Shown here: positions 2,122 through 56,918 of the stretch, piece after piece
Layout: each line of letters begins with the position of its first letter
Numbering within the stretch: the first letter of the stretch is position 1
Source: a virus
Taxonomy: Duplodnaviria > Heunggongvirae > Uroviricota > Caudoviricetes
IMG/VR virus record: IMGVR_UViG_3300028584_001240
Direction: 5' to 3' (one strand)
Length of the DNA stretch: 64,000 bases
Made by a program: the position numbers and the translations under genes
Notes under the pieces: model-generated
Seen by the model: the letters and a program-made list of their open reading frames with translations, nothing else
Told to the model about the DNA's origin: nothing
The model's database searches: none

Positions 2122-2148
2122 AAAAAACCCGCACTAGGCGGGCTTTTT
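2122..2148. terminator. Rho-independent terminator after tyrS (bidirectional shape)
   Basis: aaaaaaCCCGCactagGCGGGcttttt. Stem 2128-2132/2138-2142, flanked by an A-run and a T-run. The tyrS stop codon lies in the loop. Confidence 0.85.
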
Positions 2149-3393
2149 AATGAGTCGAAACTCTCGTTTACCACGTTGAAAGACAGCGAATTTACCAAAC
2201 TTGAAATCCGTAATTTCAAGAGCGTTCATATCATCCTCGCTGACTACCAACTTGTTACCGTTTACTTGAACCGCACCACTATGGATAAACTCTCGGCCTT
2301 GTCGTTTAGACTTAGCCAAACCAGTAGCGACCATCAAGTCAAGCACATTCAATGTTTCAGGAACAACAGCGACCATACCGTTCTTTTCAAGGTTGACAAA
2401 ATCATCTTCTTGCAAGCTATCAAAGTTGTTATCAAACAAAGCTTTGATGTTACGCAATACCGAATCAAGTGCTGCTTGACCATGAACAATAGCAGTTAAT
2501 TCCTCTGCCAAAAGCTGTTGAGCCATCGGTTTAGTGCGTTCTTTATCAGCTTCAAGGATAGCGTCAATTTCTTCAATAGACTTAAAGGACAGCATTTTGA
2601 AGAACTTCGGAATATCCGCATCGGCTACTTTCAACCAAAACTGGAAGAAATCAAAAGGGCTGGTCATTTCTGAAGATAACCAAACCGCACCGCTTTCACT
2701 TTTACCAAACTTCGTGCCATCCGCTTTGGTCAGCAAGGGAATGGTCAACCCAGTGGCTACGACATCATTACCTTCTTTACGATGGATAAGGTCAATACCA
2801 GCAGTGATGTTACCCCACTGATCGCTACCACCCAATTGAAGACGGCAATTTTTCTCTTTCATCAAGTGATGGAAGTCCATTGACTGCAGGAGCTGGTATG
2901 AGAACTCAGTAAAAGAAATACCTTGATCATCACGATCCAAGCGGCTACGTACCGAATCTTTACTCATCATAGCATTCACAGAGAAATGCTTACCCACATC
3001 ACGAAGGAAATCAATAACTGAAAGGTTAACAGTCCAATCATGGTTATCAACAAGTTCTACATCACCCAGAATATGTTTGATTTGACCAGCAATACCTGCT
3101 TTGAAACGATTAACGGTTTCCGCGTCATTCAAAGTACGTTCTTGTGCTTTAAAGCTAGGGTCACCAATCATGCCGGTAGCACCACCAATCAATGGGAACA
3201 CAGTATGGCCCGCTTTCTTAAAGCGAAGCATAGTAATCAATGGCAAAAGACTACCCACATGCAAAGACTCTGCTGTTGGGTCAAACCCGCAGTATAGGGA
3301 CAAGCCATTATCCATAAGGTCTGAAATTTTGCTTTCGTCTGTCATCTGAGAAACGAGGCCACGTTGTTTGAGTTCTTGAATAAATGCGTTCAT
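2134..3393 (-). CDS. tyrS: Tyrosyl-tRNA synthetase
   Basis: Class I aaRS. HIGH-type motif (ESLHVGSL), KMSKS-type KFGKSESG, GGATGMIGDPS, and a C-terminal S4-like domain. Start moved from the track's GTG at 3408 to ATG 3393, which has GGAG 9 nt upstream. Confidence 0.95.
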   Translation of the reverse strand: MNAFIQELKQRGLVSQMTDESKISDLMDNGLSLYCGFDPTAESLHVGSLLPLITMLRFKKAGHTVFPLIGGATGMIGDPSFKAQERTLNDAETVNRFKAGIAGQIKHILGDVELVDNHDWTVNLSVIDFLRDVGKHFSVNAMMSKDSVRSRLDRDDQGISFTEFSYQLLQSMDFHHLMKEKNCRLQLGGSDQWGNITAGIDLIHRKEGNDVVATGLTIPLLTKADGTKFGKSESGAVWLSSEMTSPFDFFQFWLKVADADIPKFFKMLSFKSIEEIDAILEADKERTKPMAQQLLAEELTAIVHGQAALDSVLRNIKALFDNNFDSLQEDDFVNLEKNGMVAVVPETLNVLDLMVATGLAKSKRQGREFIHSGAVQVNGNKLVVSEDDMNALEITDFKFGKFAVFQRGKREFRLIKKPA

Positions 3394-3581
3394 AATATTT
3401 TTCTCCACGAAAATTTAATTGTGTTTGTGTATAGCTGATTTTTTAGTTAAATAGATAATGCCTCTAAAAGAAGCATAGAGCGGAGAAGTTCAATATCGAA
3501 CGGTGAAAGACTTTTGAAAGTGAAATGTTTTTGAAGCGTTCATGATGTAGTTCCTTTGATTGCGTTTCGTTTAATATGGCT

Positions 3582-3610
3582 ATTCTATCAAAAAAACAAA
3601 AAGAAAGCAA
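3582..3610 (-). promoter_or_regulatory. Putative sigma70-type promoter of tyrS (long ~190-nt leader)
   Basis: On the minus strand: TTGCTT, 17 nt, then TAGAAT with TG at the extended -10 position (tTGaTAGAAT). Confidence 0.45.
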
Positions 3611-3621
3611 GAAAATATTGC

Positions 3622-4215
3622 TTAATTATGTGATGGTTTCCATTGTTTCACTGGTTTTACTATGTCGGATTTAAAAATATCGTTACTACCTATTGTATAA
3701 TTGCTCATAATATCAAGCTTGAACAAATGACTATTATTTTTCAAAGTCTCGGAAGCAATTACATTGTAGACGGTCTTTTGATTTACAAATTCATTCTGGC
3801 TGATTTTATTCTTTTCGATGTTCTTTAATGTATCATTAGAAAGATAACTGCCAATTTCTTTCATGGATGAATGGAACTCATCAACGGTCTTGTTTTTACG
3901 ATGAGATAACATAGATTCTATCTGGTTGTCTGAAATCGCCAGATTGCTTGTATCAAGGGTTGGAAGGTCATTTTTCCACTCTGTTTCTATTTGTTTAATC
4001 TTTGGATAGAGATCAATAAAATCACGTCTTAAAACGACCACCTGTAAATCATTGTAATAGTTTTGAAAATAATTTTTAATATGATCACTTTTCGAATGTT
4101 GCATCAATTCATTGATAGTAAAAACTTGTTTCAATACGGCCAAATCATCCAAACCTTTCTGGTTAAGTGCGTTTAATTCTTTATCTTCTATGACATCAAG
4201 CATAACAACTACCAT
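3622..4215 (-). CDS. Hypothetical protein
   Basis: Long ORF with no motif I recognise. Start is uncertain (ATG 4215 or 4203). The track's 4251 start lies upstream of a likely extended -10 (TGtTAAACT) and inside the terminator tail. Confidence 0.55.
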   Translation of the reverse strand: MVVVMLDVIEDKELNALNQKGLDDLAVLKQVFTINELMQHSKSDHIKNYFQNYYNDLQVVVLRRDFIDLYPKIKQIETEWKNDLPTLDTSNLAISDNQIESMLSHRKNKTVDEFHSSMKEIGSYLSNDTLKNIEKNKISQNEFVNQKTVYNVIASETLKNNSHLFKLDIMSNYTIGSNDIFKSDIVKPVKQWKPSHN

Positions 4216-4250
4216 TTGTTTATTAATACAGTTTAACACAAAAATACACA

Positions 4251-4276
4251 AAAAAAAAGAGACATCGAAGTCTCTT
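4251..4276 (-). terminator. Rho-independent terminator after the Nudix gene
   Basis: Minus strand: aaGAGACttcgatGTCTCtttttttttt. Confidence 0.8.
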
Positions 4277-4298
4277 AACTTTTTAAACAGTCTTAGAA

Positions 4299-4694
4299 TT
4301 ATTGAGTAAGTGCTAATTCTACTATTTTGTAAAGGTTATCTACGCCACATTTTTCCAACATATCGATATCCACATTAAAAATATCAACCACTTCTTTTTC
4401 TACAGTTTTTGCCTGATAAATTAAGTCATCAAACATACTGAATACAAAGACTTTAAACACATCGCTTTCAATTGCACCCAAACCTGACCAGTGGTTGGCC
4501 GTTGTATCAACACCGGTTTCTTCTTTAAATTCACGAATCATGGCTTGAAGTGGTGTCTCATCCATTTCAATTTTTCCACCGGGGCCATTTAACAAACCAC
4601 GTTGCCATTCTGGGGTTAATTTGCGTATGAGCAATATTTTACGTTTGTCAGCACTGAAAGCTACGGCGAGAACATATTCTTTTTTATCTGTCAT
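4299..4694 (-). CDS. Nudix hydrolase
   Basis: Nudix box GX5EX7REUXEEXGU is readable as GGKIEMDETPLQAMIREFKEETGV. Confidence 0.88.
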   Translation of the reverse strand: MTDKKEYVLAVAFSADKRKILLIRKLTPEWQRGLLNGPGGKIEMDETPLQAMIREFKEETGVDTTANHWSGLGAIESDVFKVFVFSMFDDLIYQAKTVEKEVVDIFNVDIDMLEKCGVDNLYKIVELALTQ

Positions 4695-4808
4695 AATAAT
4701 ACCCTTTTAGTTAAGTAATCTTTAAGAATACATCAAAAAATAAAAATTGAAAGAGTCGTTAAAAACATTTAAATTTAAATATATTATGATATAATAAGAA
4801 TAACAACT

Positions 4809-5885
4809 ATGTATTTTAATATGTATTTAAAAAGAGAATATATTGACGAAGCTGTCAAAAAAGATTTTTCAGAAAACCATCATGCAGAGTTCGCATGGGC
4901 GTATTACCAGAAAACTAAAGATGTTGAAAGTGTAGAACTCGCTATGGTGACCTTTGAACGTGATGAAAAAACACATAAGAGAGCTATTATCAAACAAAAG
5001 TATCTTTCAGATATTAACCAAAACAAATTGGGCGACAAATTTATTGACATTGGTGGAAATAAACCAAGATTAAGCAGCTCTTATTTAATCAATCCTAATT
5101 ATGACTACAAAGAAAATGAAATTACCAATATAGAATTAAAAACACTCAGCGAAGTTGAATTTAAAGAAATGTTTGGAACACTCAATACCATTAAATTAGA
5201 AGAAGCCAATGGATTGATGCAGAATTTTTGTAATCTAAAAGATCAAGGTGTTATCTATTCAAAAGAAGGTGAAGAATTCAGTTACAAAATTATTGAAAAC
5301 AGTGATATGACATTGGGTTCTTTATTGTTATTAGATGAATTGAGAGTATATAAGGACAATGTTCAAATAGGTTTTTTAAAGACTAAATACACTAATGATT
5401 CGATCATCAAAGAATTATTAGGACAAGATTATCAAGTACAAATCAATGACAATATGAGTGCTGATGAAAAGAAGGCATATTTAAAAGAAAAAGAAGTTGT
5501 ATTTACTGAAACTAATTATGACATCATCTTTAACATAAAAAAGAATGAATTAAAAGACCAGCTTAAGAAAATTCAAAGAGAATTGAAAATGTTTAATGAT
5601 GTTGCCACGATAGATTATTCAAAAATTAGTGATGAATTTAAGGGCAAAGGATTAGGCACACAAATATATTTAAAGATGGCTGAACATTACGATAATAAAA
5701 ATATTGTATTCAGAAGCTCTTCATTACAGTCTCCAAGTGCAAAAGGGTTATGGGAAAAGATGAAAAAAGAATATCCATCACAAATAGAAGAAATAAATAT
5801 AGCCGATCAAAACTATTACAAATTAAAAGGCAGCGGTCAGAAAGATAAAGTAACCCATAAAAGAAGAAACAAAAAGACTCTATGA
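4809..5885 (+). CDS. Hypothetical protein with possible C-terminal GNAT-like motif
   Basis: 358 aa. The C-terminal FKGKGLGTQIYLKMAEH resembles acetyltransferase motif A (Q/RxxGxG/A). The rest is unassigned. An extended -10 TGaTATAAT lies at 4787-4795. Confidence 0.6.
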   Translation: MYFNMYLKREYIDEAVKKDFSENHHAEFAWAYYQKTKDVESVELAMVTFERDEKTHKRAIIKQKYLSDINQNKLGDKFIDIGGNKPRLSSSYLINPNYDYKENEITNIELKTLSEVEFKEMFGTLNTIKLEEANGLMQNFCNLKDQGVIYSKEGEEFSYKIIENSDMTLGSLLLLDELRVYKDNVQIGFLKTKYTNDSIIKELLGQDYQVQINDNMSADEKKAYLKEKEVVFTETNYDIIFNIKKNELKDQLKKIQRELKMFNDVATIDYSKISDEFKGKGLGTQIYLKMAEHYDNKNIVFRSSSLQSPSAKGLWEKMKKEYPSQIEEINIADQNYYKLKGSGQKDKVTHKRRNKKTL

Positions 5886-5899
5886 AGAGTCTTTTTTTT
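5871..5899. terminator. Bidirectional terminator between convergent genes
   Basis: aaaaAGACTCtatgaaGAGTCTttttttt. Both stop codons lie in or next to the hairpin. Confidence 0.8.
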
Positions 5900-7802
5900 A
5901 ACGATTAAATAATTTTGTTGCAATGTTTTTTAATAAGCTTTGTTTTTTAGAATCAGTATTAGCATCAATTTTTTCCTTTAACTCTTCTTTTAACGCCGGA
6001 TAACTTTTTAAATCATGTTTAATAATCTCTAATTGTAATATTTTAAACTCATCGTCATCATAAAGTTGATTATCATTTTTTAAGTGAGCGGCACTGTGAG
6101 AGCCGTCTTTATATAAGGTAATGCCAATAAGAGAATGATTATCAGCAGGCTCTTTGTTGAGATCATAAATGAAATATTGCTGACAGTCTTCTTTATAACT
6201 TTTAAAATGAACCTCATCTCGAACGATACACCAAGAAGTGCTACCAACCGCTGAGCTTTGTTGAAAGTTCTCTATTTTTAAAATAATCAGATTGTTATCA
6301 TTTTTAATCACTTCTGCATTAACAGACTTTGCTTTGTTAATAATGGCTTCTGTGTTAAATCCACTATTAATAGAATAAAGTTGTTTCAATGCTTTATTAA
6401 AGTCTTTACTGTTTTTGAAGGATGCTAGTTTTTTACCCAAGCTATCTTGTAATTCACTAGGTGGTATGTTTAAATCGTAGAGAAGTTCTAACGTCTTAAA
6501 AGCTTCTTCATCATAGAGATGTTGATACTTTTTACTGGATATACTGAGTCCGTATTGCTCTATTTTATGCTTACGAACAAAGGCATTCATTGAATCGTCT
6601 AACATTTCAAATAATGACTCATCTATTTCTTCAAGTAGATTATAGTCTTTTGATTTTAATATGGCTTCGTGTTCAAGATAGGTATCAGCAGCAATAAAAG
6701 CACGCTCACAATCATTGAAGTCTTCTTTTAACTTATTTACAAACATTTTAGCAATAGTAGGACTTTTTTTCAATCTATTAAACAATTCTTTTTGTATCAG
6801 CTTTTCAATTAGTGTATCTTTCAATTCTTTTGAATGAAGATCAACCCATTCACCTGTATTTTTTTTGATAGCTATACTGTTGTCATCAAAAATATTAATT
6901 TGACTGATATGTGAAGTTTTGTCATCAATTTTAATATCAACACGAATACGATTAACCGAATTCAAATCAGTATCAGCACGTTCCAATAACAGCAATTCAA
7001 CATTACTAGCGTTTTTAATAAAATTAACAAACTTATGGGCATAAGAATAAGTGAAATCAGCATTGTTTTTCATCAATTTATCAACAATGTCTTGTCGTAT
7101 TTTTTTGTATTCATTAATATGTTCGAAAATGTTGCTCTGCTTTATTAGATTATTCAAAAGGTTTTCTTGATTATAAAATTTTTCAAAAAATGAAAGGTTT
7201 CTCTTTAAATTGAAACAACTTTCTATGTAGGTTGATTTTTCTAAATCAGTTGGATTTCTTGATTTGAATATGTTTAAATCATAATCAACTTCTCTTAAAC
7301 TAATATCTATTTTCTCGATTTGACTTAAAATAGGTGTAATAACATCATCTGCTTTAATAGCGGCGAGTAGATCTTTAACTTTAAGATTTTGAGATGAAAG
7401 ATCGACACCTTCTAATTTAGCAATAGCTTCCCAACCTTTAAAATTAATCAATAAGTCATCATGGATAGACGAATGTGTTATTCTATGCAATGTTCTCATA
7501 ATTTCTCGAACAGAATATCTATATAAACTAGAACTAACCTGTTCAATATCATTAAAATCAGTATCAGTATGTAATTTTTTAAAGCCAATCATTTGTTGAG
7601 AGACTATATAATCACTAACACTCTGTTGATTATACAACCTATCAAGTGTAAAAAAATAATTATCAAATCGAGCATTATACTTATGCTCATTTTTACTATT
7701 GTATGTGCTATGAAATTGATTTCTTAATGTAAAATCTTCATAACTATCAAACTGATTGTCGTGGGCCGAACAAACACTTGTTATATCATCTCTTATTAAC
7801 AT
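5898..7802 (-). CDS. Large hypothetical protein, paralogue of 24585..26729 (shared C-terminal ~190-aa domain)
   Basis: C-terminal KHKIEQYGLSISSKKYQHLYD..LIILKIENFQQSSAVGSTSWCIVRD..QQYFIYDLN..SLIGITL aligns by eye with the other gene. Start set to ATG 7802. The track's TTG at 7892 overlaps the upstream gene and a promoter-like site. Confidence 0.75.
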   Translation of the reverse strand: MLIRDDITSVCSAHDNQFDSYEDFTLRNQFHSTYNSKNEHKYNARFDNYFFTLDRLYNQQSVSDYIVSQQMIGFKKLHTDTDFNDIEQVSSSLYRYSVREIMRTLHRITHSSIHDDLLINFKGWEAIAKLEGVDLSSQNLKVKDLLAAIKADDVITPILSQIEKIDISLREVDYDLNIFKSRNPTDLEKSTYIESCFNLKRNLSFFEKFYNQENLLNNLIKQSNIFEHINEYKKIRQDIVDKLMKNNADFTYSYAHKFVNFIKNASNVELLLLERADTDLNSVNRIRVDIKIDDKTSHISQINIFDDNSIAIKKNTGEWVDLHSKELKDTLIEKLIQKELFNRLKKSPTIAKMFVNKLKEDFNDCERAFIAADTYLEHEAILKSKDYNLLEEIDESLFEMLDDSMNAFVRKHKIEQYGLSISSKKYQHLYDEEAFKTLELLYDLNIPPSELQDSLGKKLASFKNSKDFNKALKQLYSINSGFNTEAIINKAKSVNAEVIKNDNNLIILKIENFQQSSAVGSTSWCIVRDEVHFKSYKEDCQQYFIYDLNKEPADNHSLIGITLYKDGSHSAAHLKNDNQLYDDDEFKILQLEIIKHDLKSYPALKEELKEKIDANTDSKKQSLLKNIATKLFNR

Positions 7803-7824
7803 AAATACATCGTGGTTTTTTATT

Positions 7825-7853
7825 ATTATAACATATAATATAAAAAGTCTTAA
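7825..7853 (-). promoter_or_regulatory. Putative promoter for 5898..7802
   Basis: Minus strand: TTAAGA, 17 nt, then TATAAT with TGt (aTGtTATAAT). Confidence 0.4.
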
Positions 7854-7875
7854 TCTATTTTTTACACTGAGTCGA

Positions 7876-8574
7876 TTACATATTTTCTCCAATATTATAC
7901 ATTTTCAACAACAGAAGTTCTCTTTTGGTTAATTTATTAAACTTTTTATCAAACAAAGACAAAGTGTGAGAGCTTAAATACTTTTCCAGCTCAGTTTTAA
8001 AACTCCTACTCAGGATAGAGCTGACATAGCGTTCACCTGTTAACGTTTTGGCATACAGCATCTGGTTATGCTGAAAGCAAACCGTTTCATCTTTTTTCGA
8101 AATAACAAAAGTGCTTTGATACTTGACAAAATGAGAACCAAACCGCAAAGCATTCAAATCTGAAAATTTGAACGATGAAGAATTCAAAACCTCAAAACCT
8201 TTAAAATAATAAGAAGCTCTGTCGAGATATATAAGGTTTTTCAACATCAAGCCTTCAGCACTTGGCGTGATGCCAGATAGCGTAATCTTATTAAGTGTTC
8301 GTCTGTTAATAAATCCAATTGGGATAAAAACGCCTAATTGTCCTCTGTTGTCATTGTAGTAACCAATAAAATATCTACGATCATTAAGTCCAATCAAATA
8401 AATATGACAATTATCTTCATCAAAATAGTATTTTAATTGAGGAAAAGCATATTTATTAACATGATTACCAATATCAAATCCACGAGTAAGATGCAGAAAA
8501 TCGGTGTCAGGTAATTCCGACATATCAGTTAAAAGAAGATCGTGAATCAGCGTTACATCAGGTTGTGTCATCAT
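7876..8574 (-). CDS. Tail-motif paralogue family member (motif plus 5-aa extension)
   Basis: 232 aa. Ends ..LTKRELLLLKMYNIGENM; compare ..NKRELDLIRMSYI and ..TKRERDIIEMMYI. GGAGG SD. Confidence 0.75.
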   Translation of the reverse strand: MMTQPDVTLIHDLLLTDMSELPDTDFLHLTRGFDIGNHVNKYAFPQLKYYFDEDNCHIYLIGLNDRRYFIGYYNDNRGQLGVFIPIGFINRRTLNKITLSGITPSAEGLMLKNLIYLDRASYYFKGFEVLNSSSFKFSDLNALRFGSHFVKYQSTFVISKKDETVCFQHNQMLYAKTLTGERYVSSILSRSFKTELEKYLSSHTLSLFDKKFNKLTKRELLLLKMYNIGENM

Positions 8575-8585
8575 GAACCTCCAGA

Positions 8586-8613
8586 TAAAAAAATATCTCC
8601 GAAGAGATATTTT
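8586..8613 (-). terminator. Rho-independent terminator after the S49 peptidase gene
   Basis: Plus strand reads aaaaaaaATATCTCcgaaGAGATAT; on the minus strand the hairpin is followed by a T-run. Confidence 0.8.
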
Positions 8614-8627
8614 AATTTGAAAACGTA

Positions 8628-9524
8628 TTAACGAATGCTTTCATTCGGGTGAGACATTGAAAAGAGTTTATCAATAGCCTTACCAATGGATGTTTCAAGA
8701 ACAGCGTCTAGACCGAACAAGCCAGCCAAACCACCACTTTTAGCCTTAACATCAGTATTCACCTGATACAGTTGGGCACCGTCTTTAAAAGCCTTCAAAA
8801 TAGCCGAGCGACTATCACCAATTTCATCAACAAGATGTTCCTTCAACACATCTTGTGCCATGTAAAAGTCACCTTCCATCAGCTTTTCAGGATTAATCAT
8901 AGGGCGATATTGCAATACATGGTTTTTGAACGCAGTGTGAATTTCAACCAGTTTTTGTTTGAAAATAGTTTCTTCGGCTTCACTTGGAAGTTTAGTAGGA
9001 ACCACAGAACGCTTATTGGTGCCTGCTGTGTAAACTCGAACATCAACACCGATTTTAGTCAGCACTTCTTCAAAGATAGGCACTTGCGAAACAACACCGA
9101 TAGAGCCAACAAAAGCAAACGGTTGAGCCACAATGCGATCACAGACCGAAGCCATCATATAACCACCACTGGCCGCGACTTCATCAACAAAACCAGTAAC
9201 CTTCAGACCGTGAGCACGAAGACGGTTGATTTGCTGAGCAGCATTCGCATAGGCGGTTACACTGCCACCGGGGCTTTTAATAATCATGTAGACAGCATCA
9301 CCACTTTTGGAGTTAAGGATAGTCATGTCCACATCACGTTCCAGTTTTTCAAACGCATTGCCTTTATCTTCGGCGTTAAAACGAAGAACAAAGATCTTAT
9401 TCAAATAAACGACATCTTTCGTTTTTGCTTTCAATTCACGTCGAACTTCACGACTCTCAATCTTTTTAATGAGTTCACGGTTCATATCTTTGATTTCTGT
9501 TTTAAAACGAATTTCTTTAGACAT
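8628..9524 (-). CDS. S49-family serine peptidase (SohB/SppA-like, ClpP/crotonase fold)
   Basis: IKSPGGSVTAY..VDEVAASGGYMMASVCDRIVAQPFAFVGSIGVV is the typical S49 core. AGGAG SD. Confidence 0.8.
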   Translation of the reverse strand: MSKEIRFKTEIKDMNRELIKKIESREVRRELKAKTKDVVYLNKIFVLRFNAEDKGNAFEKLERDVDMTILNSKSGDAVYMIIKSPGGSVTAYANAAQQINRLRAHGLKVTGFVDEVAASGGYMMASVCDRIVAQPFAFVGSIGVVSQVPIFEEVLTKIGVDVRVYTAGTNKRSVVPTKLPSEAEETIFKQKLVEIHTAFKNHVLQYRPMINPEKLMEGDFYMAQDVLKEHLVDEIGDSRSAILKAFKDGAQLYQVNTDVKAKSGGLAGLFGLDAVLETSIGKAIDKLFSMSHPNESIR

Positions 9525-9601
9525 TTATTGCTCCTAGGCGTTATTAATGTGGGAATTATAATACATTTTTGAAACGTTGTAAAGGAATGATTTGTATCGA
9601 A

Positions 9602-9808
9602 TTATTTATGATAACGGGAAATTCTCGCAATCTCACCATCCATCCATTGAACAGCACTCAATTCTGGAAGAAGTTTATTCTCTGGTTCAAAGATAAAACG
9701 ACGAACACCACGAAGCAAACCATAACCATAGCTCAATTCAGAAACGATTTTGTAAAGGTTGCCACTGATTGAATACATCTTGCCGCAAATGAGAGGTTTA
9801 TGTTTCAT
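9602..9808 (-). CDS. Hypothetical small protein
   Basis: 68-aa ORF with AAGGA upstream. No recognisable motif. Confidence 0.5.
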   Translation of the reverse strand: MKHKPLICGKMYSISGNLYKIVSELSYGYGLLRGVRRFIFEPENKLLPELSAVQWMDGEIARISRYHK

Positions 9809-9897
9809 GGAGTTAATTCCTTGCTGGTCATTTAAGTAGGTCGCTATTGTATCAAAAATTTAATCACTAAGCAACTGAAATAGTATTAAAATAATCC

Positions 9898-9926: not shown

Positions 9927-9963
9927 TTCCTTTAAATTTATTGATAATTATTGACAAGGTGGA

Positions 9964-48669: not shown

Positions 48670-48673
48670 AATA

Positions 48674-49375: not shown

Positions 49376-49410
49376 AATAAGAGAACCTTTTTTTAATTTA
49401 AGTAAGTGTA

Positions 49411-50142
49411 TCAATAATAGGTCATTTTTACAAGTTCTTTTAAACGTTCATCCCATTTTGAAATATCCAATAGAGCATAAACATCATCAAAACTCATATT
49501 AGGATAAGCTTCTTTTATTTTGTCTTTGTAATACAGTTTAAAAAACTCAATGTCCATATTTTTTAACGTATTCTGTGTAGTTAACATATTATCCGTTACA
49601 TAGTAGACTGGAAGGATTTCACTAGATGATTTGTTACTTTTCATAAACTGAACAGCTAGAGTTCTTGAAATTTTTTTATTAAGCTGATCATATTTGAAAT
49701 TAAATTTAATTGAAAAGTCGTTGCAGACAATAAATTGATAATCGTCAGAAATATTTTTTTGATTGAGAAGTGTTAAGTGTTGATTAGTATGTTGCATAAA
49801 CAAATCAATCATTGGTGAAGATAAATCACCAAAACGTTCAGAATAAATATCATCGTATTTAGAAGATAATTCAAAAAAAAGTGAACTTGGTGTGTCACCT
49901 TTACCAACATGAGCAATAGTTTCCGACTTAGCGGCTGTGCCACCATACATTCCATAAGTAAAAGGAGCTTCTTTAAGTGCTTCAATAATCCGATTACCCT
50001 CTTTATCTAATGGATAACGACAGATTCCAATTGGATTAGTACCATACTCGTAGTGTTCATTTGTAAAGTTGTTTACAAAATAATCAAGGAATCCATACAA
50101 GGGAAACTGTTTCTTTTTTTCTTCATCAATGACTTCATTCAT
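49411..50142 (-). CDS. Tail-motif paralogue family member (sub-cluster B, 1 of 4)
   Basis: 243 aa. Ends ..WDERLKELVKMTYY. Confidence 0.8.
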   Translation of the reverse strand: MNEVIDEEKKKQFPLYGFLDYFVNNFTNEHYEYGTNPIGICRYPLDKEGNRIIEALKEAPFTYGMYGGTAAKSETIAHVGKGDTPSSLFFELSSKYDDIYSERFGDLSSPMIDLFMQHTNQHLTLLNQKNISDDYQFIVCNDFSIKFNFKYDQLNKKISRTLAVQFMKSNKSSSEILPVYYVTDNMLTTQNTLKNMDIEFFKLYYKDKIKEAYPNMSFDDVYALLDISKWDERLKELVKMTYY

Positions 50143-50208: not shown

Positions 50209-50859
50209 TCAATCTTTCTTGCCCATAATACTGAGGATTCGCAAGAACAAGTTGATGATGTCCATATACAGTGCAGCGGCTGAGTCTACGGCGTTATCGA
50301 CAGTTTTAGGAAGTGCCGAAGCTTTACCCCAGTCGTAACCGATATAACCACAGAAGATAGCAGCAATAATCCAGTCCATAATGCCCAAGTCCATTTTAAA
50401 CACAAAGGTCAAAATCAATTCAGCAATAATAGATGCCAGCAAACCCCAAAACAGACCTGATGCAATACTCTCAAAGAACTTAGGATAGGCAGTGCCCAAC
50501 ACCATCATAATACACGTTACCACCGTTGTAACCTGCATGGCATTGATAACCAGCTCAGGTGAATACTGTGATGTTACCATATTCACAATCAAACCAAATG
50601 GCACTGCCACAAAGTTAAAACCTATAAAGCTGACAAGAGCGTTATCAGATTTAGTAAACAAATAAATACCAAACAAGCAGCTTGCAAAATAACCAATCAA
50701 GAAAACCCAAATATTAATGGACAACAGACTGGCTACTGGAATGGTTTTAACGATAAAGACGTTCATCAAAAAACCATACAGCAATACAGCACCAATGATA
50801 AAATTATACAATCGTGTAGAAATTGTATTTTCCGAAGCATAAGCCGTAGATGTTTTCAT
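50209..50859 (-). CDS. Bax-inhibitor-1 / YccA-family membrane protein
   Basis: 216 aa, about 7 TM segments. The C-terminal AAALYMDIINLFLRILSIMG is the characteristic BI-1/YccA signature. Confidence 0.8.
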   Translation of the reverse strand: MKTSTAYASENTISTRLYNFIIGAVLLYGFLMNVFIVKTIPVASLLSINIWVFLIGYFASCLFGIYLFTKSDNALVSFIGFNFVAVPFGLIVNMVTSQYSPELVINAMQVTTVVTCIMMVLGTAYPKFFESIASGLFWGLLASIIAELILTFVFKMDLGIMDWIIAAIFCGYIGYDWGKASALPKTVDNAVDSAAALYMDIINLFLRILSIMGKKD

Positions 50860-50928: not shown

Positions 50929-51489
50929 TTAAATGCAAATCATGCGAATAACTTCACGTTCTTCTGGTGTCATGCTTGCTAAGGGTTTAATCAATTCTTC
51001 TGGAATAGGTTGACCAAAATAGCTAATGTAATAATCTAACACTTTTCTTTCCATTTCTTCAATATTACTGTCATTTACTTCAAAAAGAGACATGTGATAA
51101 TCACCATATTCAAGCTCGTTAAATTCAAAGAGATGAACCTTTTGAATATGCCCAGATAAATTGATAAAATAATAAGCATACTCATTATAACATTCATCAT
51201 ATTTTTCAGGATTGAAAAACTCATCATAATCTTTAATGATATTATATAGCTTGGACTCAAATGAATATTTTTCTTCAAGATAATTTAAAAAATCACTCCA
51301 ATTGTGATGATCTGGGTTAATGCCAAAAGCATGACCTTCATCCAATGTGATGTGATCAACTAGATTGTGTTCATGGACAAGCTTTGGCCGGGTCAATCTA
51401 AAAGATTTTTTAGTAATCCCTTTCGAGATAAGAAAATCTTTGACCTGTTCATAAATTGTGTCATAGGAAAACTCTTTGGTTTCAATCAT
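50929..51489 (-). CDS. Tail-motif paralogue family member (sub-cluster C, 3 of 3)
   Basis: Ends ..MTPEEREVIRMICI. Start moved from GTG 51498 to ATG 51489 (AAGGTG upstream). YSFESKLYNIIKDYDEFFN matches the next gene. Confidence 0.8.
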   Translation of the reverse strand: MIETKEFSYDTIYEQVKDFLISKGITKKSFRLTRPKLVHEHNLVDHITLDEGHAFGINPDHHNWSDFLNYLEEKYSFESKLYNIIKDYDEFFNPEKYDECYNEYAYYFINLSGHIQKVHLFEFNELEYGDYHMSLFEVNDSNIEEMERKVLDYYISYFGQPIPEELIKPLASMTPEEREVIRMICI

Positions 51490-51555
51490 CAATATCACCT
51501 TTAAAATAGATGAATCATTATAGCATTATAATAACAAAAAATCCACACAATCTAT

Positions 51556-52122
51556 CTAAATATGAATCATTTCAAGTAACGATATTTCTTCTTTTGATAA
51601 TTGACTTAATGGTCTTTTTAATTCTTCTGGTGTGTTGGCATTTCCAAAATACTGAAAATAGTAATCGAAAATTCTAGTTTCTAATGAGCGTAAATTAGTG
51701 TCATCAAATTCAAGAAACTTCATATAATCATTGCCCAACTCAATGTCAGTAAAGTCAAATGAATAAACTTTTCTCAGTCTTTGATCCATATCAAAAGCAT
51801 AATGACCATTAACATAATAACAGTCTTTTCTCGGATGCTTATTAAAAAAGTCATCATAAAAACCCAGTGTTTTTTCAAGGCGGCTCTCAAAAGAATAACG
51901 ATGGTCTAAATATTCAGCCAAAGGTTCACAAAAAGGATGGTTCCATTTGATTTTAAAACAATGCCCCATCGAAATAGTTTGATTATCAAAAATAATTTCA
52001 CGAGTCAGAATCTCTGGAATTGCTGCACAGAAGTCTTCCTTTTTGATAGAATTAATCAAACAAAAAGTTTGAAGAGATTCAAAGACAGTCTCATCAGTAA
52101 ACTTATAGGTTTCAATCGTCAT
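51556..52122 (-). CDS. Tail-motif paralogue family member (sub-cluster C, 2 of 3)
   Basis: 188 aa. Ends ..LSKEEISLLEMIHI. Contains YSFESRLEKTLGFYDDFFN. Confidence 0.8.
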   Translation of the reverse strand: MTIETYKFTDETVFESLQTFCLINSIKKEDFCAAIPEILTREIIFDNQTISMGHCFKIKWNHPFCEPLAEYLDHRYSFESRLEKTLGFYDDFFNKHPRKDCYYVNGHYAFDMDQRLRKVYSFDFTDIELGNDYMKFLEFDDTNLRSLETRIFDYYFQYFGNANTPEELKRPLSQLSKEEISLLEMIHI

Positions 52123-52137
52123 ATAAAACTCCTAGAA

Positions 52138-52758
52138 TCAAAACACATACATCAAAAATACTTTATATTCCTCTGGTGTCATCTTAGTAATAGGTTTTCT
52201 AAGTTCATCAGGTAAATCCGGCATATAACGAATATACGCTCTATTAAAGAATTCCTCAATCATTTCATAGTAAAGCGTATCATCCATGCCTTCATACATA
52301 ATAATTTCAACACCATCATCGTCTTCATTACAACAATCCGTCAATCTAAGCGTTCTAGCCACTTTAAGCAATCCATTTTTATCAAAATAAAAAGCTTCTT
52401 CATAATCATCAAATGGGTCGTCTTGAACATTAAGACTATTAGCAATTTGGTAAATTTTATCCATAATAGGAAAATGGATATCACCATCATTATTCTGTGT
52501 GCAATGTGCGGCTGCTAATTGAGTTAGCTTACGTTCACAGCTTTCAAGTTGCCAAAAAATAGTGAAACAATCCACCGAAATTTTACTGTATTCACAATAG
52601 TTATTATAGGTGGCAACATTCCCCATCACTTCATCAGTGGTATAGACCTTACCGTCTTTAGTAAATGTAATAGTATCTATAAATTTCCTAATATCATCAA
52701 TTGTGTATTCTTTTGAGATTTTAGGGTAGTTAGTATATTGATAAAAGTCGTGTTTCAT
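52138..52758 (-). CDS. Tail-motif paralogue family member (sub-cluster C, 1 of 3)
   Basis: 206 aa. Ends ..MTPEEYKVFLMYVF. Confidence 0.8.
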   Translation of the reverse strand: MKHDFYQYTNYPKISKEYTIDDIRKFIDTITFTKDGKVYTTDEVMGNVATYNNYCEYSKISVDCFTIFWQLESCERKLTQLAAAHCTQNNDGDIHFPIMDKIYQIANSLNVQDDPFDDYEEAFYFDKNGLLKVARTLRLTDCCNEDDDGVEIIMYEGMDDTLYYEMIEEFFNRAYIRYMPDLPDELRKPITKMTPEEYKVFLMYVF

Positions 52759-53618
52759 ATTGTCTCCATCATTAATAAAGCAAGATAACGATCACGCATC
52801 TCAGTATTAGACAAATCAATCTGGTCTTTTTTCAACCCGTAACGTTGCTTAATGATAGGAAGAAGCCTACTGATAAATTGTGCTTCCATGATTTCAGGCA
52901 ATTGGTCTTTATTAATAGGTCGAGACATCGAAATAAGGTCTTCATAAGATCGAGCCGCAAACACTTGTCTAGTAGTATACACTGTATCAGCATAAACATC
53001 CACAATAAAACTGGCCGCATAGTCTTGGTCAAACCAAGTATCTACAATAAATATGGGTTTAAGGTTGTTGTGTTGATCAATATAAAAATGAAGTTGACTT
53101 TTAATCAAAGAAACCTTTATATGGCTGTATCGTTTATTTTTTTTGTAAGCCTGATTAAATTTTAATTGGGCAATGTTACAACGGCAACATACATCATCTT
53201 GGGCATATTTAGATTTAAAAGAAATATAAGCCACAGGATTTGCAGCTACTGTTTCAAAATCATTCTGCACAATAGACAATATGCCAGATGAAGACATATT
53301 TTTAGCAACATCAATATAAGCTTTTAATACATTGTCAACAGTTTCTCTTTTGATGTTAAAGGCTTTGCAGAAAGTGTGTTCAAACTCATTACGATCTTCT
53401 TTTACAAAGTGATCGACTTTAAAGATTGCACGATTTTTATGAATAAAAACATTAAAGTGACTGTCTGTATTAGTGATTTTAAATTCAAACTGTCCAAAAG
53501 TGCCGGGAACACTTCCGCCTTCTGATGGCGTGTTGATAGCTACATGGGAACTGAGAGCTTGATGTATGTGATCAGCAAAAATTTCTTCTGGCCGTAGACT
53601 GTTTGTAATAGATTGCAT
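52755..53618 (-). CDS. Tail-motif paralogue family member
   Basis: 287 aa. Ends ..EMRDRYLALLMMETI. ATGA overlap with the downstream gene. Confidence 0.8.
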   Translation of the reverse strand: MQSITNSLRPEEIFADHIHQALSSHVAINTPSEGGSVPGTFGQFEFKITNTDSHFNVFIHKNRAIFKVDHFVKEDRNEFEHTFCKAFNIKRETVDNVLKAYIDVAKNMSSSGILSIVQNDFETVAANPVAYISFKSKYAQDDVCCRCNIAQLKFNQAYKKNKRYSHIKVSLIKSQLHFYIDQHNNLKPIFIVDTWFDQDYAASFIVDVYADTVYTTRQVFAARSYEDLISMSRPINKDQLPEIMEAQFISRLLPIIKQRYGLKKDQIDLSNTEMRDRYLALLMMETI

Positions 53619-53717: not shown

Positions 53718-54950
53718 TTATTTTACAATAACCGTCGCCGTTAATGGAACACTACATCTTTCTTCATTGTTAACAGTCTTACATGCTGATATATAATAAG
53801 GATAAGTTCCAACTGCTGCTGGTGCATTAGTTGGAAAAGCTACAACTGCAGCCGTTGCTGAGTTAGTTGCCTTTCTAACAAGTGTTGATCCTGCTGATTT
53901 AGAGAACACATCAAAGGTTAATGCTGTATTAGGAGCTACTGTATTTTGGTATCTCACATTATTAATCATAGCAATAGTAGCCGTAGGTGATGCTTCAATC
54001 GTTAATGGCTTTGTTATGGATGCACTACCACCTGCTTCATTATAAGCAGCTAACACAATATTGAATGTGCCTTCACATACACCACATACAGTTTTTTGAA
54101 CGCCTGATGTTGCATCAACAAAAGTACTTGGAAAACCAGTATACGAACTAGATGATCTTATTTGATAACTTGTTGCATTAGTTGCATTAAAATTAAGTGC
54201 ATAAGTTTGACCACCATAAATGACACTTGGAAACTCAAATGAATTGATTACTGGTATAGCCACAGACTTCACCGTTACACTTTTTGTAAAGACTTTACCT
54301 TCTTCATTGGTAGCTTCAAGTGTGTAAATGGTATCACCAATTGGGTGAACTCGACCATAAGTTACAGTTTTAAGTGTTTTAGTTAATAATGCTGAATAGC
54401 CAAGATTATTCGTTAACTTTAATGTCGTAGGTGTTGGCATATCCCATGTAAATACCAAAGAAGTGTTAGTATTAGATACTACTGGTTTATCAACGGTGAA
54501 GCTAGTAATCATATTGACATCAGCTACATCTACTGTCAGTGTACGTTGTTCACTATTACCAAATGAGTCAATACCTTCCAATATATAATTAAAATTTCCA
54601 CTATTAGATTGAGTAACATTACGGCTAGTTGTTTTATTATCTATTACTTGTCCATTAAATTTTAATGTCACTGCATTTTTAATAGACCAATCAAATTTTG
54701 AAATATCACCTTTATTAACTGTATTTGAGTCTACAGTAAATGAAATAATTTCAATTTTATCTTTATCGTCAGGAATTGGATTTTCTTCAACAGGTGGAAT
54801 TTCTTCTACTGGCGGAACTTCTACTATAGGTTTACTGACAAACACAATGTTTGATTTATCAGGAGAAATTATGACTGTGTATTGGTTTGCAGCATAAGTG
54901 CTTGAAACTAACATCATGGATAATAATGTTATTTTTAGATTTTTATTCAT
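53718..54950 (-). CDS. Exported protein with repeated Ig-like/beta-sandwich-type modules
   Basis: 410 aa. Signal peptide MNKNLKITLLSMMLVSSTYA-AN, a (P)PVEE(I/N)P repeat, then repeated modules (FTVDSNTVNKGDISKFDWSIKNAVTLKFNG.. and FTVDKPVVSNTNTSLVFTWDMPTPTTLKLTN..). Ser/Thr/Asn/Val-rich. Confidence 0.65.
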   Translation of the reverse strand: MNKNLKITLLSMMLVSSTYAANQYTVIISPDKSNIVFVSKPIVEVPPVEEIPPVEENPIPDDKDKIEIISFTVDSNTVNKGDISKFDWSIKNAVTLKFNGQVIDNKTTSRNVTQSNSGNFNYILEGIDSFGNSEQRTLTVDVADVNMITSFTVDKPVVSNTNTSLVFTWDMPTPTTLKLTNNLGYSALLTKTLKTVTYGRVHPIGDTIYTLEATNEEGKVFTKSVTVKSVAIPVINSFEFPSVIYGGQTYALNFNATNATSYQIRSSSSYTGFPSTFVDATSGVQKTVCGVCEGTFNIVLAAYNEAGGSASITKPLTIEASPTATIAMINNVRYQNTVAPNTALTFDVFSKSAGSTLVRKATNSATAAVVAFPTNAPAAVGTYPYYISACKTVNNEERCSVPLTATVIVK

Positions 54951-55003
54951 ATACTTTATTATGGTTTTGTTATTATTATAATCATTTTCTAACGAAAGTC
55001 AAT

Positions 55004-55026
55004 AAAAAAGCCTCCGAAGAGGCTTT
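55004..55026 (-). terminator. Rho-independent terminator after ligA
   Basis: Minus strand: AGCCTCttcgGAGGCTttttt. Confidence 0.85.
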
Positions 55027-55043
55027 ATATATTGTTAAGTAAA

Positions 55044-56918
55044 TCAGACTGCAATGTATTTTGCAACAAATTCAGCTTCGGTCAAGATTTCAATATCAAC
55101 ACCTTTCGCTTTCAAGGCTTGGGCGTCAGCAAGTTTACTACCAGCACTTTCACCGTAAACAAGAATTTGTGTTGTCTTGCTTGCTTTGCTTTGGATCTTC
55201 GCACCTTTCGATGTGAAGAACGCTTCAATCTCTTTACGTGAGTAGCTAACCATTGTACCAGTTACCACCACGTTCTTACCAGAGAATGGACTATCATTGT
55301 CAACAACTGCTTGTGAAGACAATTCAAGATTGAACAAAGGACGCAAGGTATTAATCAATTCAAGTTTTTCTTGAATACCGGCTGGAATGAGAACGCTATT
55401 CACTGGGCCGTAACCTTTCATCTTAATCAACTTACCTTCTTCGACTTCATGCAGTGCGTCGATATTGAAGACTTTAAGCAACTTTTTAGAGTCGCCTTTA
55501 CCAAGACTCGAAATACCGAAGGCTGCAAGGAAACGCCAGTCTTCAATTTGACTTGATTTACTGGTTTCAAGAGCGGCGACCAAGTTAGGGCTTTCACCTT
55601 TACCAAAACCAGCGGTCAAGAAATCCTGCTCTTTCATTGCGTAAATCTTTTCCAAGGTGTCGAAACCTGCTTCAACCAACTTAGCGACTGTTTTACCACC
55701 AAAACCATCGTTGTTAGCCAATGTTGCAAAGAAGTGCAACAAGGTCTGGCTAATTTGTTCCGAGCAACCTGAATGGTTAGGGCAGAAAAGGAAGTGACTT
55801 TCCCATTCAAGCACAGTGTTACAGCAAGGGCAGTTCGTTGGAACTTCGTATTCAGCTTGGGTAATCACTTTTTCAATTTTAGGGATTACTTCACCACTAC
55901 GAATGATTTCAATGACGGCACCTACACCCATTTTGTTCGTGCGAACGTTGTTCATGTGGTGAGCGGTTACGTTACTAATCGTTGCACCAGACACAAGAAC
56001 AGGAGCCACAGCAAGAACCGGCGTGATAGTGCCAGTGCGACCTACTTGAAGTTTAACATCAAGCACAGTAGTCTGTGCAGTTTCACCACGTTCTTTAAAT
56101 GCACACTGCCATTTATTGTGATGGTTGTTGTAGCCCATGTATTCTTTGATTTCTGGAACAATGGATTCAATCACGAAACCGTCAATCAAGTAAGGAATAG
56201 CAGCACGCAAATCGTTGTTGATTTGTACAAGGTTAGCAAGAATGTCATCAGCCGTGCCAACATAAGCCTGCAACGTGGTGTAAGGCACAAAATGAATCGC
56301 ACCGTCATCCAAAGCCTTCTGAGTTTCAGGGCGTGTATCTTCCTGAGACAATACGCTGCTCATCATGTTACGTGGATGTGGGAACATCGAAGCAAGGTTC
56401 TCTGCGAAATAAGTCTTGTCAATCACCAACTCGCCACGACCTTCTGCATTTTCTTTACGAATAACACCTTTATCGTAGATGTAAGTAATGTCGTTACCAC
56501 GAATGCCATCACCACGAGTAGATAGTTTTTCTGTTTCATGGCAACCCGCAAAACCATCAAGTTTGCAAGTAACTTTATACATGGATTTTACATGAAGATC
56601 CTGAGCTACGTCTTCAACACGTTTAAACCATTTAGCCAAGGCTTCGGAAGTGTAGAATTTTTCGGTTGACAGCATAGGGGAAGAGTGAGTAATAGCGTTT
56701 TCGCCAACTTCTTCCAATTCAATTTCATCAAACCATGTTGATTCAGGGAATTTAGCACGAAAATCTTCAACAACAGCGTCATAATTTTCATCGGCAATTG
56801 GATCAAGACCAAACAATGCAGTCTTTGGCAACGATTTACGGTAGCAATCGTTATAATCTTCAAGCAGCTCAATGAAAGCAGCTTCGGTTGTTGGGTATTT
56901 GATGTCATTGATATTCAT
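55044..56918 (-). CDS. ligA: NAD-dependent DNA ligase
   Basis: 624 aa. Adenylation KxDG (TCKLDGFAG), OB fold, four-Cys zinc finger (CPCCNTVL..CPNHSGC), HhH region and a C-terminal BRCT (GKNVVVTGTM..). GGAG SD. Confidence 0.96.
   Translation of the reverse strand: MNINDIKYPTTEAAFIELLEDYNDCYRKSLPKTALFGLDPIADENYDAVVEDFRAKFPESTWFDEIELEEVGENAITHSSPMLSTEKFYTSEALAKWFKRVEDVAQDLHVKSMYKVTCKLDGFAGCHETEKLSTRGDGIRGNDITYIYDKGVIRKENAEGRGELVIDKTYFAENLASMFPHPRNMMSSVLSQEDTRPETQKALDDGAIHFVPYTTLQAYVGTADDILANLVQINNDLRAAIPYLIDGFVIESIVPEIKEYMGYNNHHNKWQCAFKERGETAQTTVLDVKLQVGRTGTITPVLAVAPVLVSGATISNVTAHHMNNVRTNKMGVGAVIEIIRSGEVIPKIEKVITQAEYEVPTNCPCCNTVLEWESHFLFCPNHSGCSEQISQTLLHFFATLANNDGFGGKTVAKLVEAGFDTLEKIYAMKEQDFLTAGFGKGESPNLVAALETSKSSQIEDWRFLAAFGISSLGKGDSKKLLKVFNIDALHEVEEGKLIKMKGYGPVNSVLIPAGIQEKLELINTLRPLFNLELSSQAVVDNDSPFSGKNVVVTGTMVSYSRKEIEAFFTSKGAKIQSKASKTTQILVYGESAGSKLADAQALKAKGVDIEILTEAEFVAKYIAV

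Follow-up and report, generated by a model that had tools for sequence, protein, structure and literature searches.

Why should some genes of a viral replicon be clearly richer in guanine and cytosine (GC) than the genes that surround them? The question is raised by a stretch of 64,000 nucleotides (nt) of the IMG/VR virus record IMGVR_UViG_3300028584_001240 (Caudoviricetes); this one 64-kb stretch, at its whole length, is the DNA analyzed here and is called the window. A first reading of its letters, the original prediction, had noticed that eight genes with cellular homologues (tyrS, serS, thrS, ligA, an S49 peptidase gene, a BI-1-like gene, an SPFH gene and an "NTase-like" gene) looked GC-richer than the many orphans, and in particular than the genes of a large paralogous family, here the tail family. 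Stronger constraint on the enzymes, their more recent acquisition, or a fast, mutation-biased evolution of the arrays were offered as reasons. In our judgment, the contrast probably arises because one and the same AT-biased mutational pressure meets genes that differ in the selection on them, and not through recent import.

The window has a GC content of 32.5%, a coding fraction of 94% and 86 non-overlapping open reading frames (ORFs) of at least 50 amino acids (aa), nine of which pass the Pfam cut-offs (tyrS, NUDIX, S49, serS, SPFH, DUF7716, short thrS, BI-1 and ligA). Together with a nucleotidyltransferase gene they are given below, where GC1, GC2 and GC3 stand for GC at the three codon positions, GC12 for the first two, and GC4 for four-fold degenerate sites.

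2134-3408, minus strand: tyrS, tyrosyl-tRNA synthetase; GC 0.424, GC12 0.435, GC4 0.312; Pfam tRNA-synt_1b, 3.5e-76.
4299-4694, minus strand: NUDIX hydrolase; GC 0.369; Pfam NUDIX, 5e-13; absent from the original list.
8628-9524, minus strand: S49 (SppA-type) peptidase; GC 0.413; Pfam Peptidase_S49, 1.3e-31.
16772-18043, minus strand: serS, seryl-tRNA synthetase, sitting between two tail-family arrays; GC 0.381; Pfam tRNA-synt_2b, 8e-42, and Seryl_tRNA_N.
31533-32441, minus strand: SPFH/Band-7 gene; GC 0.359, with a very low GC4 of 0.109; Pfam Band_7, 1.6e-27.
42363-42683: DUF7716 gene, by Pfam; absent from the original list.
42737-43831, plus strand: nucleotidyltransferase of the pol-beta family, the "NTase-like" gene; GC 0.403; phrog_24943, 3e-33, and tblastn, with no Pfam match.
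46149-47327, plus strand: short thrS, threonyl-tRNA synthetase of 392 aa; GC 0.387; Pfam.
50209-50859, minus strand: BI-1 (Bax-inhibitor/YbhL family); GC 0.389, GC3 0.431; Pfam Bax1-I, 1e-21.
55044-56918, minus strand: ligA, NAD-dependent DNA ligase; GC 0.423; Pfam OB, adenylation and BRCT domains.

The tail family comprises 35 ORFs of 188-304 aa, mostly in head-to-tail arrays. Its members are only 12-17% identical pairwise and not alignable enough to define a family, which was therefore delimited by its C-terminal motif, approximately [YE]-hydrophobic-x-[LVI]-hydrophobic-[EKD]-M-x-x-[IYV]-COOH. Methionine stands at position -4 in 34 of the 35, and chance alone should give about 0.7 ORFs with the minimal motif, as estimated from residue frequencies. 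The members are distributed as follows:

9964-10569, plus strand: single gene ending in ...LLKMARI; GC 0.290.
10982-16771, minus strand: array of seven (starts 10982, 11813, 12607, 13537, 14313, 15125, 15938); GC 0.29-0.34.
18091-24142, minus strand: array of eight (starts 18091, 18874, 19633, 20382, 21143, 22006, 22759, 23528); GC 0.28-0.36.
28800-31013, minus strand: array of three, by the C-terminal motif; GC 0.316-0.341.
34601-35494, plus strand: single gene, by the C-terminal motif; GC 0.270.
37256-38095, minus strand: single gene, by the C-terminal motif; GC 0.295.
39337-39999, minus strand: single gene, by the C-terminal motif; GC 0.309.
43886-45405, plus strand: pair, AT-richer than all other genes of the window; GC 0.253 and 0.279.
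48001-50142, minus strand: array of three, with ...KMxYY endings.
50929-53618, minus strand: array of four, by the C-terminal motif; GC 0.31-0.34.
57004-57822, minus strand: single gene, by the C-terminal motif; GC 0.342.
60913-61692, 61714-62496 and 63338-64000, minus strand: three genes, the last one cut by the window end.
62577-63341, plus strand: an unrelated orphan amid these last tail genes.

Class statistics refer to genes of at least 100 aa. The eight genes originally named, all of which were located, have a mean GC of 0.397 (0.359-0.424), compared with 0.308 in the tail family (n = 35, 0.253-0.364) and 0.332 in the other orphans (n = 33, 0.263-0.431). They exceed all remaining genes by 0.078 on average (Mann-Whitney p = 3.5e-7; permutation p = 1e-5), and the peaks of GC at 1-kb scale fall on them. 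The per-gene GC3 values point the same way (0.356 in the eight genes versus 0.263 in the tail family, p = 8e-5), and so does a class defined by Pfam alone (n = 9), which differs from the tail family in GC (0.385 versus 0.308, p = 1.9e-5, area under the receiver operating characteristic curve [AUC] 0.97) and in GC3 (0.328 versus 0.263). The "dichotomy" of the original prediction thus stands as a significant difference of means, but what underlies it is a continuum. Mixture modelling does not support two discrete GC classes, one and two components being equal (Bayesian information criterion -263.6 versus -263.9), and the GC range of the enzymes is also reached by nine unlisted genes outside the tail family (eight orphans and the NUDIX gene) and by one tail gene.

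Gene length and strand fail to account for the contrast. Among the remaining genes the longer ones tend to have a lower GC (rho -0.30), so the enzymes are not GC-rich through their length. It is extremely unlikely that the whole pattern is an artefact, whether of length, of strand or of AT-rich orphans that would be spurious ORFs. Such a reading could invoke some doubtful ORFs below 100 aa in the first ORF list (e.g., 24139-24366 and 37078-37239) and the four plus-strand tail genes, which are AT-richer than the 31 on the minus strand (0.273 versus 0.312). Nevertheless, the analysis was limited to longer genes, the DNA is 94% coding, GGAG-type ribosome-binding sites stand upstream of genes, and the ratio of non-synonymous to synonymous substitution rates (omega) between orthologues is well below 1; moreover, since stop codons are AT-rich, chance ORFs of about 250 codons would be very unlikely.

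Where, then, does the gap sit? Pooled over the Pfam and tail genes it amounts to 0.088, with 64% due to amino-acid composition and 36% to synonymous choice. GC1 is 0.500 in the Pfam genes versus 0.392 in the tail family, and GC2 0.325 versus 0.267. The bias of the orphans towards Asn, Lys, Ile, Phe and Tyr was correctly perceived: residues with AT-rich codons (Phe, Tyr, Met, Ile, Asn and Lys, or FYMINK) make up 0.401 of the tail proteins and 0.307 of the Pfam ones, those with GC-rich codons (Gly, Ala, Arg and Pro, or GARP) 0.124 and 0.192, with Ala and Gly halved in the tail family; the tail-to-Pfam ratios are 1.88 for Tyr, 1.42 for Phe, 1.39 for Asn, 1.22 for Ile and 1.13 for Lys. At four-fold sites no difference was found among the Pfam, tail and other genes, either in GC4 (0.271, 0.259 and 0.255, p = 0.45) or in C/(C+T) (0.234, 0.235 and 0.235; odds ratio 0.99, p = 0.96). 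Intergenic GC is 0.263, so the second codon positions of the tail family (0.267) are as AT-rich as silent and non-coding DNA.

These silent sites bear directly on the suggestion that the enzymes would be recent imports from GC-richer cellular donors. The amelioration of transferred genes, which is the model behind any such reading, predicts a deviant third-position or four-fold GC, a patchy distribution and close donors. The enzymes of the window resemble amelioration cases in that, having cellular homologues, they are ultimately of cellular origin. Unlike those cases, they share their four-fold GC with the orphans, they are not patchily distributed (BI-1 excepted), and no close donor appears for the two genes compared in this respect, tyrS and BI-1.

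Their long residence is seen best in a 437-kb relative, IMGVR_UViG_3300031133_000383, which between 199.8 and 241.8 kb is collinear, in inverted orientation, with positions 3622-62577 of the window. The shared backbone extends over some 60 kb here and 42 kb there, the extra DNA of the window being mostly further tail-family genes and BI-1. It keeps seven of the nine annotated genes in collinear positions, with synonymous divergence (dS) saturated; NUDIX (49% identity), S49 (69%), serS (74%), SPFH (74%), the pol-beta gene (76%), thrS (83%) and ligA (69%) follow in the same order.

The tyrS gene lies outside the collinear segment, and its age can be read elsewhere. Its metagenomic homologues range from 98% down to about 61% identity, and its surroundings (S49, NUDIX, tyrS and a nucleoside deoxyribosyltransferase gene) are syntenic in three related loci, L001, L005 and L007, where tyrS is 98%, 80% and 67% identical. 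In all of 20 neighbor-joining bootstraps the lineage groups as a single clade apart from 80 bacterial sequences, and identity to bacteria is at most 50% among the 600 pattern-matched loci of GTDB species representatives listed; in favor of import one may cite that the closest cellular tyrS genes among those matches are beta- and gamma-proteobacterial. The 80 bacterial tyrS genes also define a neutrality line, GC12 = 0.372 + 0.192*GC4 (r = 0.89, residual sd 0.026), which predicts a GC12 of 0.432 for tyrS, the gene tested, where 0.435 is observed; it is therefore as AT-shifted as a tyrS gets at its silent-site GC.

The one possible exception is BI-1, alone among the enzyme-class genes in showing signs of a later gain. 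No orthologue fills the collinear slot of the 437-kb relative, no gene of 100 aa or more has a higher GC3 (0.431), and the matches listed outside the lineage, those named being from Shewanella, Vibrio and relatives, share 57-65% identity with it. Even so, a divergence of 35-43% from these listed homologues means that its silent sites are too old to recall a donor. As a general explanation recent import is refuted by the equal silent-site GC, the collinearity at saturated dS, and the monophyly of tyrS with its low identity to bacteria, and we give it very little credence.

The opposite suggestion, that the arrays and not the enzymes are foreign, either imported from an AT-richer source or newly born from non-coding AT-rich DNA, is likewise highly improbable. 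It draws on the coincidence of tail-family GC2 with intergenic GC and on the restriction of the family to this clade: the motif was found in six related loci (L001, L005, L007, L008, L023 and L107), while ten other serS-bearing loci on viral contigs gave one weak, chance-like match only. The numbers of tail genes also differ, with 35 in 64 kb here and 16 in 49 kb in the 437-kb relative. Yet the silent-site composition of the tail genes is identical to that of the enzymes, the family is old, with its 12-17% mutual identity and its presence in relatives whose tyrS is down to 67% identical, an omega of about 0.2 indicates a long-standing coding constraint, and ribosome-binding sites stand before the genes.

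Expansion or contraction of the arrays is the chief structural difference from the 437-kb relative, in which the array at 48001-50142 has no reciprocal best match. As to the proteins themselves, blastp, phmmer and iterated hidden Markov models joined tail members into triplets and pairs only; neither the tail genes nor the large orphans scanned with Pfam, PHROG and PADLOC gave a usable match; and an AlphaFold2 model of one member, from an alignment of 25 paralogues, was unusable for a fold search (predicted local distance difference test 47, predicted template modelling score 0.22). The motif might serve as a common tag for docking, targeting or degradation.

If silent sites are the same everywhere, the difference between the classes should be one of selection, and the rates agree. 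In L107, a collinear locus, serS is 89% identical (non-synonymous divergence, dN, 0.064; omega 0.08) and S49 82% (dN 0.113; omega 0.13), whereas for 15 tail genes the positional orthologues share 38-77% identity, with dN 0.16-0.56, i.e., 2.5-9 times that of serS, and omega 0.09-0.43; in the array at 10982-16771 identities are 38-75%, with the same range of omega. All the tail genes are under purifying selection (omega < 1), and they are thus real genes and not debris. At the distance of the 437-kb relative, Pfam genes have an average identity of 0.70, and tail genes one of 0.33 (range 26-42%).

Furthermore, composition follows conservation gene by gene. The more similar a gene is to its L107 orthologue, the higher its GC12 tends to be, among all genes (rho 0.81), among non-Pfam genes (0.75) and within the tail family (0.72, p = 0.0025), where identity also correlates with FYMINK (rho -0.76, p = 0.001) and not with GC4. 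The correlation among non-Pfam genes fades in the 437-kb relative (rho 0.19), probably due to saturation. There, the ten genes that are at least 50% identical have a mean GC of 0.388, five of them without a Pfam match, against 0.322 and 0.312 for the remainder; conserved genes are told from the others with an AUC of 0.90 by GC and 0.59 by GC4. Three unannotated genes among the GC-rich ones are worth naming:

28333-28746, minus strand: orphan without Pfam match; GC 0.431, the highest in the window; 56% identical in the 437-kb relative.
36452-36874: orphan of the same kind; GC 0.410; 61% identical.
40038-40406: orphan of the same kind; GC 0.385; 74% identical.

GC therefore follows conservation and not annotation. 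Between the window and the 437-kb relative, orthologues also agree in GC12 (rho 0.83), and the same division of classes recurs in the relative (0.402 versus 0.314), from which we infer a stable equilibrium and not a transient state. Both the stronger constraint on the enzymes and the fast, mutation-biased evolution of the arrays, which the original prediction had set out as alternatives, are thus borne out by the values of dN and by a tail-family GC2 equal to four-fold and intergenic GC.

A separate observation concerns the closest relative, L001, which covers positions 1-13521 of the window. Among neighboring genes dS ranges from 0.07 to 2.3, with 0.07 for S49, 0.17 for 7876-8574, and more than 1 for tail genes and for 4809-5885 and 5898-7892. 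Such a patchwork points to recent recombination and to a mosaic of old and young segments, so that identities at the level of L001 cannot be read as rates.

The remaining third of the gap, synonymous choice, had been overlooked in the original prediction. The GC gap itself holds, but about one third of it is specific codon choice: the enzymes carry a coherent set of preferred codons, distinct from general GC. Two-fold pyrimidine codons end in C in 0.412 of cases in Pfam genes versus 0.221 in tail genes (p = 5e-22); TTG makes up 0.755 versus 0.376 of the TTR leucine codons (p = 9e-16); the share of T over A at four-fold sites is 0.70 versus 0.62 (p = 7e-5); and CGT accounts for 0.64 versus 0.29 and AGA for 0.13 versus 0.36 of arginine codons. 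Purine-ending two-fold codons showed no difference between classes. The most extreme gene is ligA, with 60% of its two-fold codons ending in C and TTG in 25 of 25 cases. On the first principal component (PC1) of relative synonymous codon usage, which takes up 25% of the variance and parts the classes at p = 3e-5, ligA, tyrS, S49, pol-beta and serS lie at one pole with CGT, TTG, GGT, AAC and TAC, and the AT-rich orphans at the other with AGA, TTA, GGA, ATA, ACA and CCA. The avoidance of ATA in the enzymes holds even in L007, the most AT-rich member of the lineage (0.95 versus 0.54).

Could the contrast then be chiefly a matter of expression-linked codon selection, with the backbone tuned to the tRNAs of the host, as early genes might be, and the arrays to tRNAs encoded by the element? 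A preference for CGT, GGT, NNC and TTG is usually ascribed to selection for efficiency or accuracy in decoding by abundant bacterial tRNAs, and T4-type phages encode tRNAs for AGA, AUA, UUA, GGA, CCA and ACA. The two poles of PC1 fit this classic partition between "host-preferred" codons (CGT, GGT, NNC) and "phage-tRNA" codons (AGA, ATA, TTA, GGA, CCA, ACA), and the enzymes' preference for T over A at four-fold sites goes with it. The splits of CGT versus AGA and of TTG versus TTA, moreover, are seen again in L001, L005 and the 437-kb relative. The window also has tRNA genes of its own:

38149-38349, minus strand: tRNA-Lys(UUU) and tRNA-Pro(UGG), each reading A-ending codons; ARAGORN and Rfam.

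No other family was found when the window was scanned with Rfam. Unlike the T4-type partition, however, the "host-like" codons here are in enzymes and not in structural genes. A recent survey treats codon usage and tRNA genes in phages (PMC13015707). Codon selection as the chief cause covers 36% of the gap only, amino-acid content having the larger share; aminoacyl-tRNA synthetases and a ligase are no obvious high-expression genes; and the 437-kb relative lacks the NNC component. We regard it as a possible explanation, though a tentative one, which could also call on a third group of genes with GC3 of 0.14-0.19 that includes an Ig/PKD-repeat-like protein.

This third group deserves a description of its own. 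The genes at 35588-36343, 53718-54950 and 33227-34099 combine the GC3 just given with a high GC2. With 45467-45829, 60344-60856 and the SPFH gene at 31533-32441 they make up a wider set of very low GC3 and GC4 (0.11-0.19) and of GC2 up to 0.46, which lies at the other end of the codon axis from the enzymes. The gene at 53718-54950 is built of repeats, which reach up to 15 copies in large metagenomic proteins and give weak Ig/PKD signals; a scan of IMG/VR with it found no relative. The genes of this group may encode abundant structural or surface proteins.

Returning to uniform mutation under unequal selection, the reading that we favor, several points weigh against it or limit it. Inside the enzymes, variable and conserved residues are alike in GC1 and GC2 (0.549/0.321 versus 0.524/0.324 in eight backbone genes), as they are in GARP and FYMINK. 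The preference for C-ending two-fold codons, strong here and in L001, is weaker in L005, nearly absent in L007 and nearly nil in the 437-kb relative (0.23 versus 0.21), which makes it a lineage-specific and unexplained component. The correlation between composition and conservation is partly built in, "recognizable" being itself defined through conservation, and the omega values are rough, given that dS is saturated in most comparisons. With an omega of about 0.2, the Asn/Lys/Ile/Phe/Tyr-rich make-up of the tail proteins could be partly functional. Finally, the basis is 8-9 annotated genes in one window.

Constraint at the level of individual sites inside the enzymes was considered and rejected, because their free sites are no more AT-shifted than the conserved ones; it follows that constraint acts at the level of the gene, on the overall make-up of the protein. 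As regards codons, C-ending two-fold codons appear somewhat enriched at conserved residues in the eight pooled genes (Mantel-Haenszel odds ratio 1.53, uncorrected p = 0.03), a weak effect.

Altogether, the proposed scenario would run as follows. One AT-biased mutational pressure would act over the whole replicon, with an equilibrium near 26% GC, as suggested by the same value in intergenic DNA, in the four-fold sites of all classes and in tail-family GC2, and genes would differ only in the distance from it at which selection keeps them. A small, collinear and vertically inherited backbone under strong purifying selection (aminoacyl-tRNA synthetases, ligA, S49, SPFH, the pol-beta nucleotidyltransferase and a few unannotated genes) would retain the amino-acid content of globular enzymes, with GC12 about 0.42, and a set of selected codons (CGT, GGT, TTG and C-ending two-fold codons), while shunning AGA, ATA, TTA and GGA; this set would reflect selection for decoding by abundant host tRNAs or for accuracy. 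The tail arrays and most orphans, evolving several-fold faster, would have slid toward Phe, Tyr, Met, Ile, Asn and Lys and toward A-ending codons until the equilibrium was largely reached, their composition being the outcome of drift rather than of function. Of these elements, the partition of the gap, the equality of silent-site GC, the difference in rates, the collinearity and the age of tyrS are directly shown.

The equilibrium of the lineage has itself moved, judging from the local GC of related elements, which is 23.9% in L007 (on a 1.04-Mb contig), 29.5% in L005, 30-31% in L008 and L023, 32.5% in the window and 33.6% in L001.

The ingredients of this scenario are familiar. GC1, GC2 and the GARP/FYMINK balance reportedly move with mutational bias, and less so in conserved proteins. 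Here, as in Sueoka neutrality plots, bacterial tyrS follows a slope of 0.19 with the window gene on the line, and the fastest genes are the most shifted; unlike in those between-genome plots, the contrast lies inside one replicon, and GC2 of the extreme class equals silent-site GC. The unshifted variable residues of the enzymes also depart from the nucleotide-bias model, whose measures have found recent applications (PMC11980380; PMC5054120).

Most window genes also recall ORFans. In bacteria and phages, ORFans and accessory genes are said to be short, AT-rich and fast-evolving, and the orphans and tail genes of the window agree with this in having no homologues outside the clade, in being AT-rich and in a dN 2.5-9 times that of serS. 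They differ from typical ORFans in that most belong to one huge divergent family, in tandem arrays and with a common [LVI]-x-x-M-x-x-[IYV]-COOH ending, and in that their silent sites are not compositionally distinct.

Some further observations concern the enzymes. The start codon of tyrS is probably the ATG five codons inside the ORF, its homologues being 419 aa long. The S49 orthologues of relatives are 98, 82, 69, 62 and 58% identical. The short ThrRS has only its class II core and an anticodon-binding domain, without the N-terminal TGS or the editing region, and its residues 7-365 are matched at 33-43% identity by Vibrio, Acinetobacter, Sinorhizobium and uncultured phage records. A homologue of the pol-beta gene in Acinetobacter phage ME3 is annotated as "DNA polymerase beta family protein". 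The ligase is less than 30% identical to any deposited phage ligase, and an exact look-up of it found nothing on record.

The signals of expression are of bacterial type, as indicated by the GGAG ribosome-binding sites, by sigma-70 promoters, near consensus and with an extended -10 element, before many genes, and by an enrichment of terminator-like hairpins (19 versus 8.2 in shuffled sequences, sd 3.0); the total count of sigma-70-like sites, 107 versus 97.5 in shuffles, is not above chance. One 12-mer, ACACAAACACAA, has two exact copies, at 3419-3430 (minus strand) before tyrS and at 46113-46124 (plus strand) before thrS. The first ends 11 nt before the GTG with which the tyrS ORF begins and 26 nt before the probable ATG, and the second ends 25 nt before the start of thrS; the count of the 12-mer, 3 against 1.2 expected, is not above chance, 3 being reached in 9 of 100 shuffles. 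Near the left end of the window are three small Cys-rich paralogues (576-866, 1144-1449 and 1410-1664; 84-101 aa) ending in C-x-C-H...[LVM]H, which are only 26-63% identical even in the closest relative.

What kind of element carries these genes? Huge phages reportedly reach 735 kb, and the window resembles them in its aminoacyl-tRNA synthetase genes, its tRNAs and its many ORFans. The nearest deposited matches of thrS and of the pol-beta gene include the uncultured phages LR756504 and LR756501 (636 kb and 735 kb); nevertheless, matches to phages of this type are at only 27-41% identity, and a megablast of 25 kb against deposited phages returned no match. The protein encoded at 10982-11779 is identical to one, P0124, recorded on a JGI contig of 1,851,360 bp, and close relatives lie on contigs of 1,843,594, 1,858,324, 1,859,102 and 1,917,244 bp, the third of which, JGI 3300031134 Ga0308158_10000001, bears its locus (L110) at 1.413-1.434 Mb; remoter relatives are on contigs of 1.54 and 1.04 Mb. 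These 1.84-1.92 Mb of the close relatives far exceed the 735 kb that a review of June 2026 gives as the upper size of known phage genomes (PMC13282480), and we found no phage genome above 1 Mb in the literature. As to content, ORFans make up about 88%, promoters and ribosome-binding sites are of bacterial type, and a phage-type RNA ligase is present beside the short ThrRS; no capsid, portal, terminase or ribosomal gene was seen in the DNA examined. The large contigs may be a megabase-scale phage-like replicon, an unrecognized cell or an assembly concatemer.

For the biology of this lineage, the aminoacyl-tRNA synthetase, ligase and peptidase genes are long-resident, collinear components and not recent pick-ups from a host, and the tail arrays a fast-evolving and expanding compartment. 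Gene GC or GC12 predicts which unannotated genes of the lineage belong to the conserved backbone (AUC 0.90). It is conceivable, if rather unlikely, that two translation regimes coexist in a megabase-scale phage-like replicon, one of a small backbone tuned to host tRNAs (the CGT/GGT/TTG/NNC pole) and the other of a large and growing number of clade-specific genes, arrays and low-GC3 genes alike (the AGA/GGA/TTA/ATA pole), which would use tRNAs for A-ending codons encoded by the element; were this true, gene GC would be a readout of the translation regime. The compositional pattern itself is already known and holds nothing new: it is the textbook outcome of AT-biased mutation with unequal constraint, and it dates no gene transfer. 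The context may outweigh the composition, namely a replicon of bacterial type, made mostly of ORFans, with relatives on contigs of 1.84-1.92 Mb.

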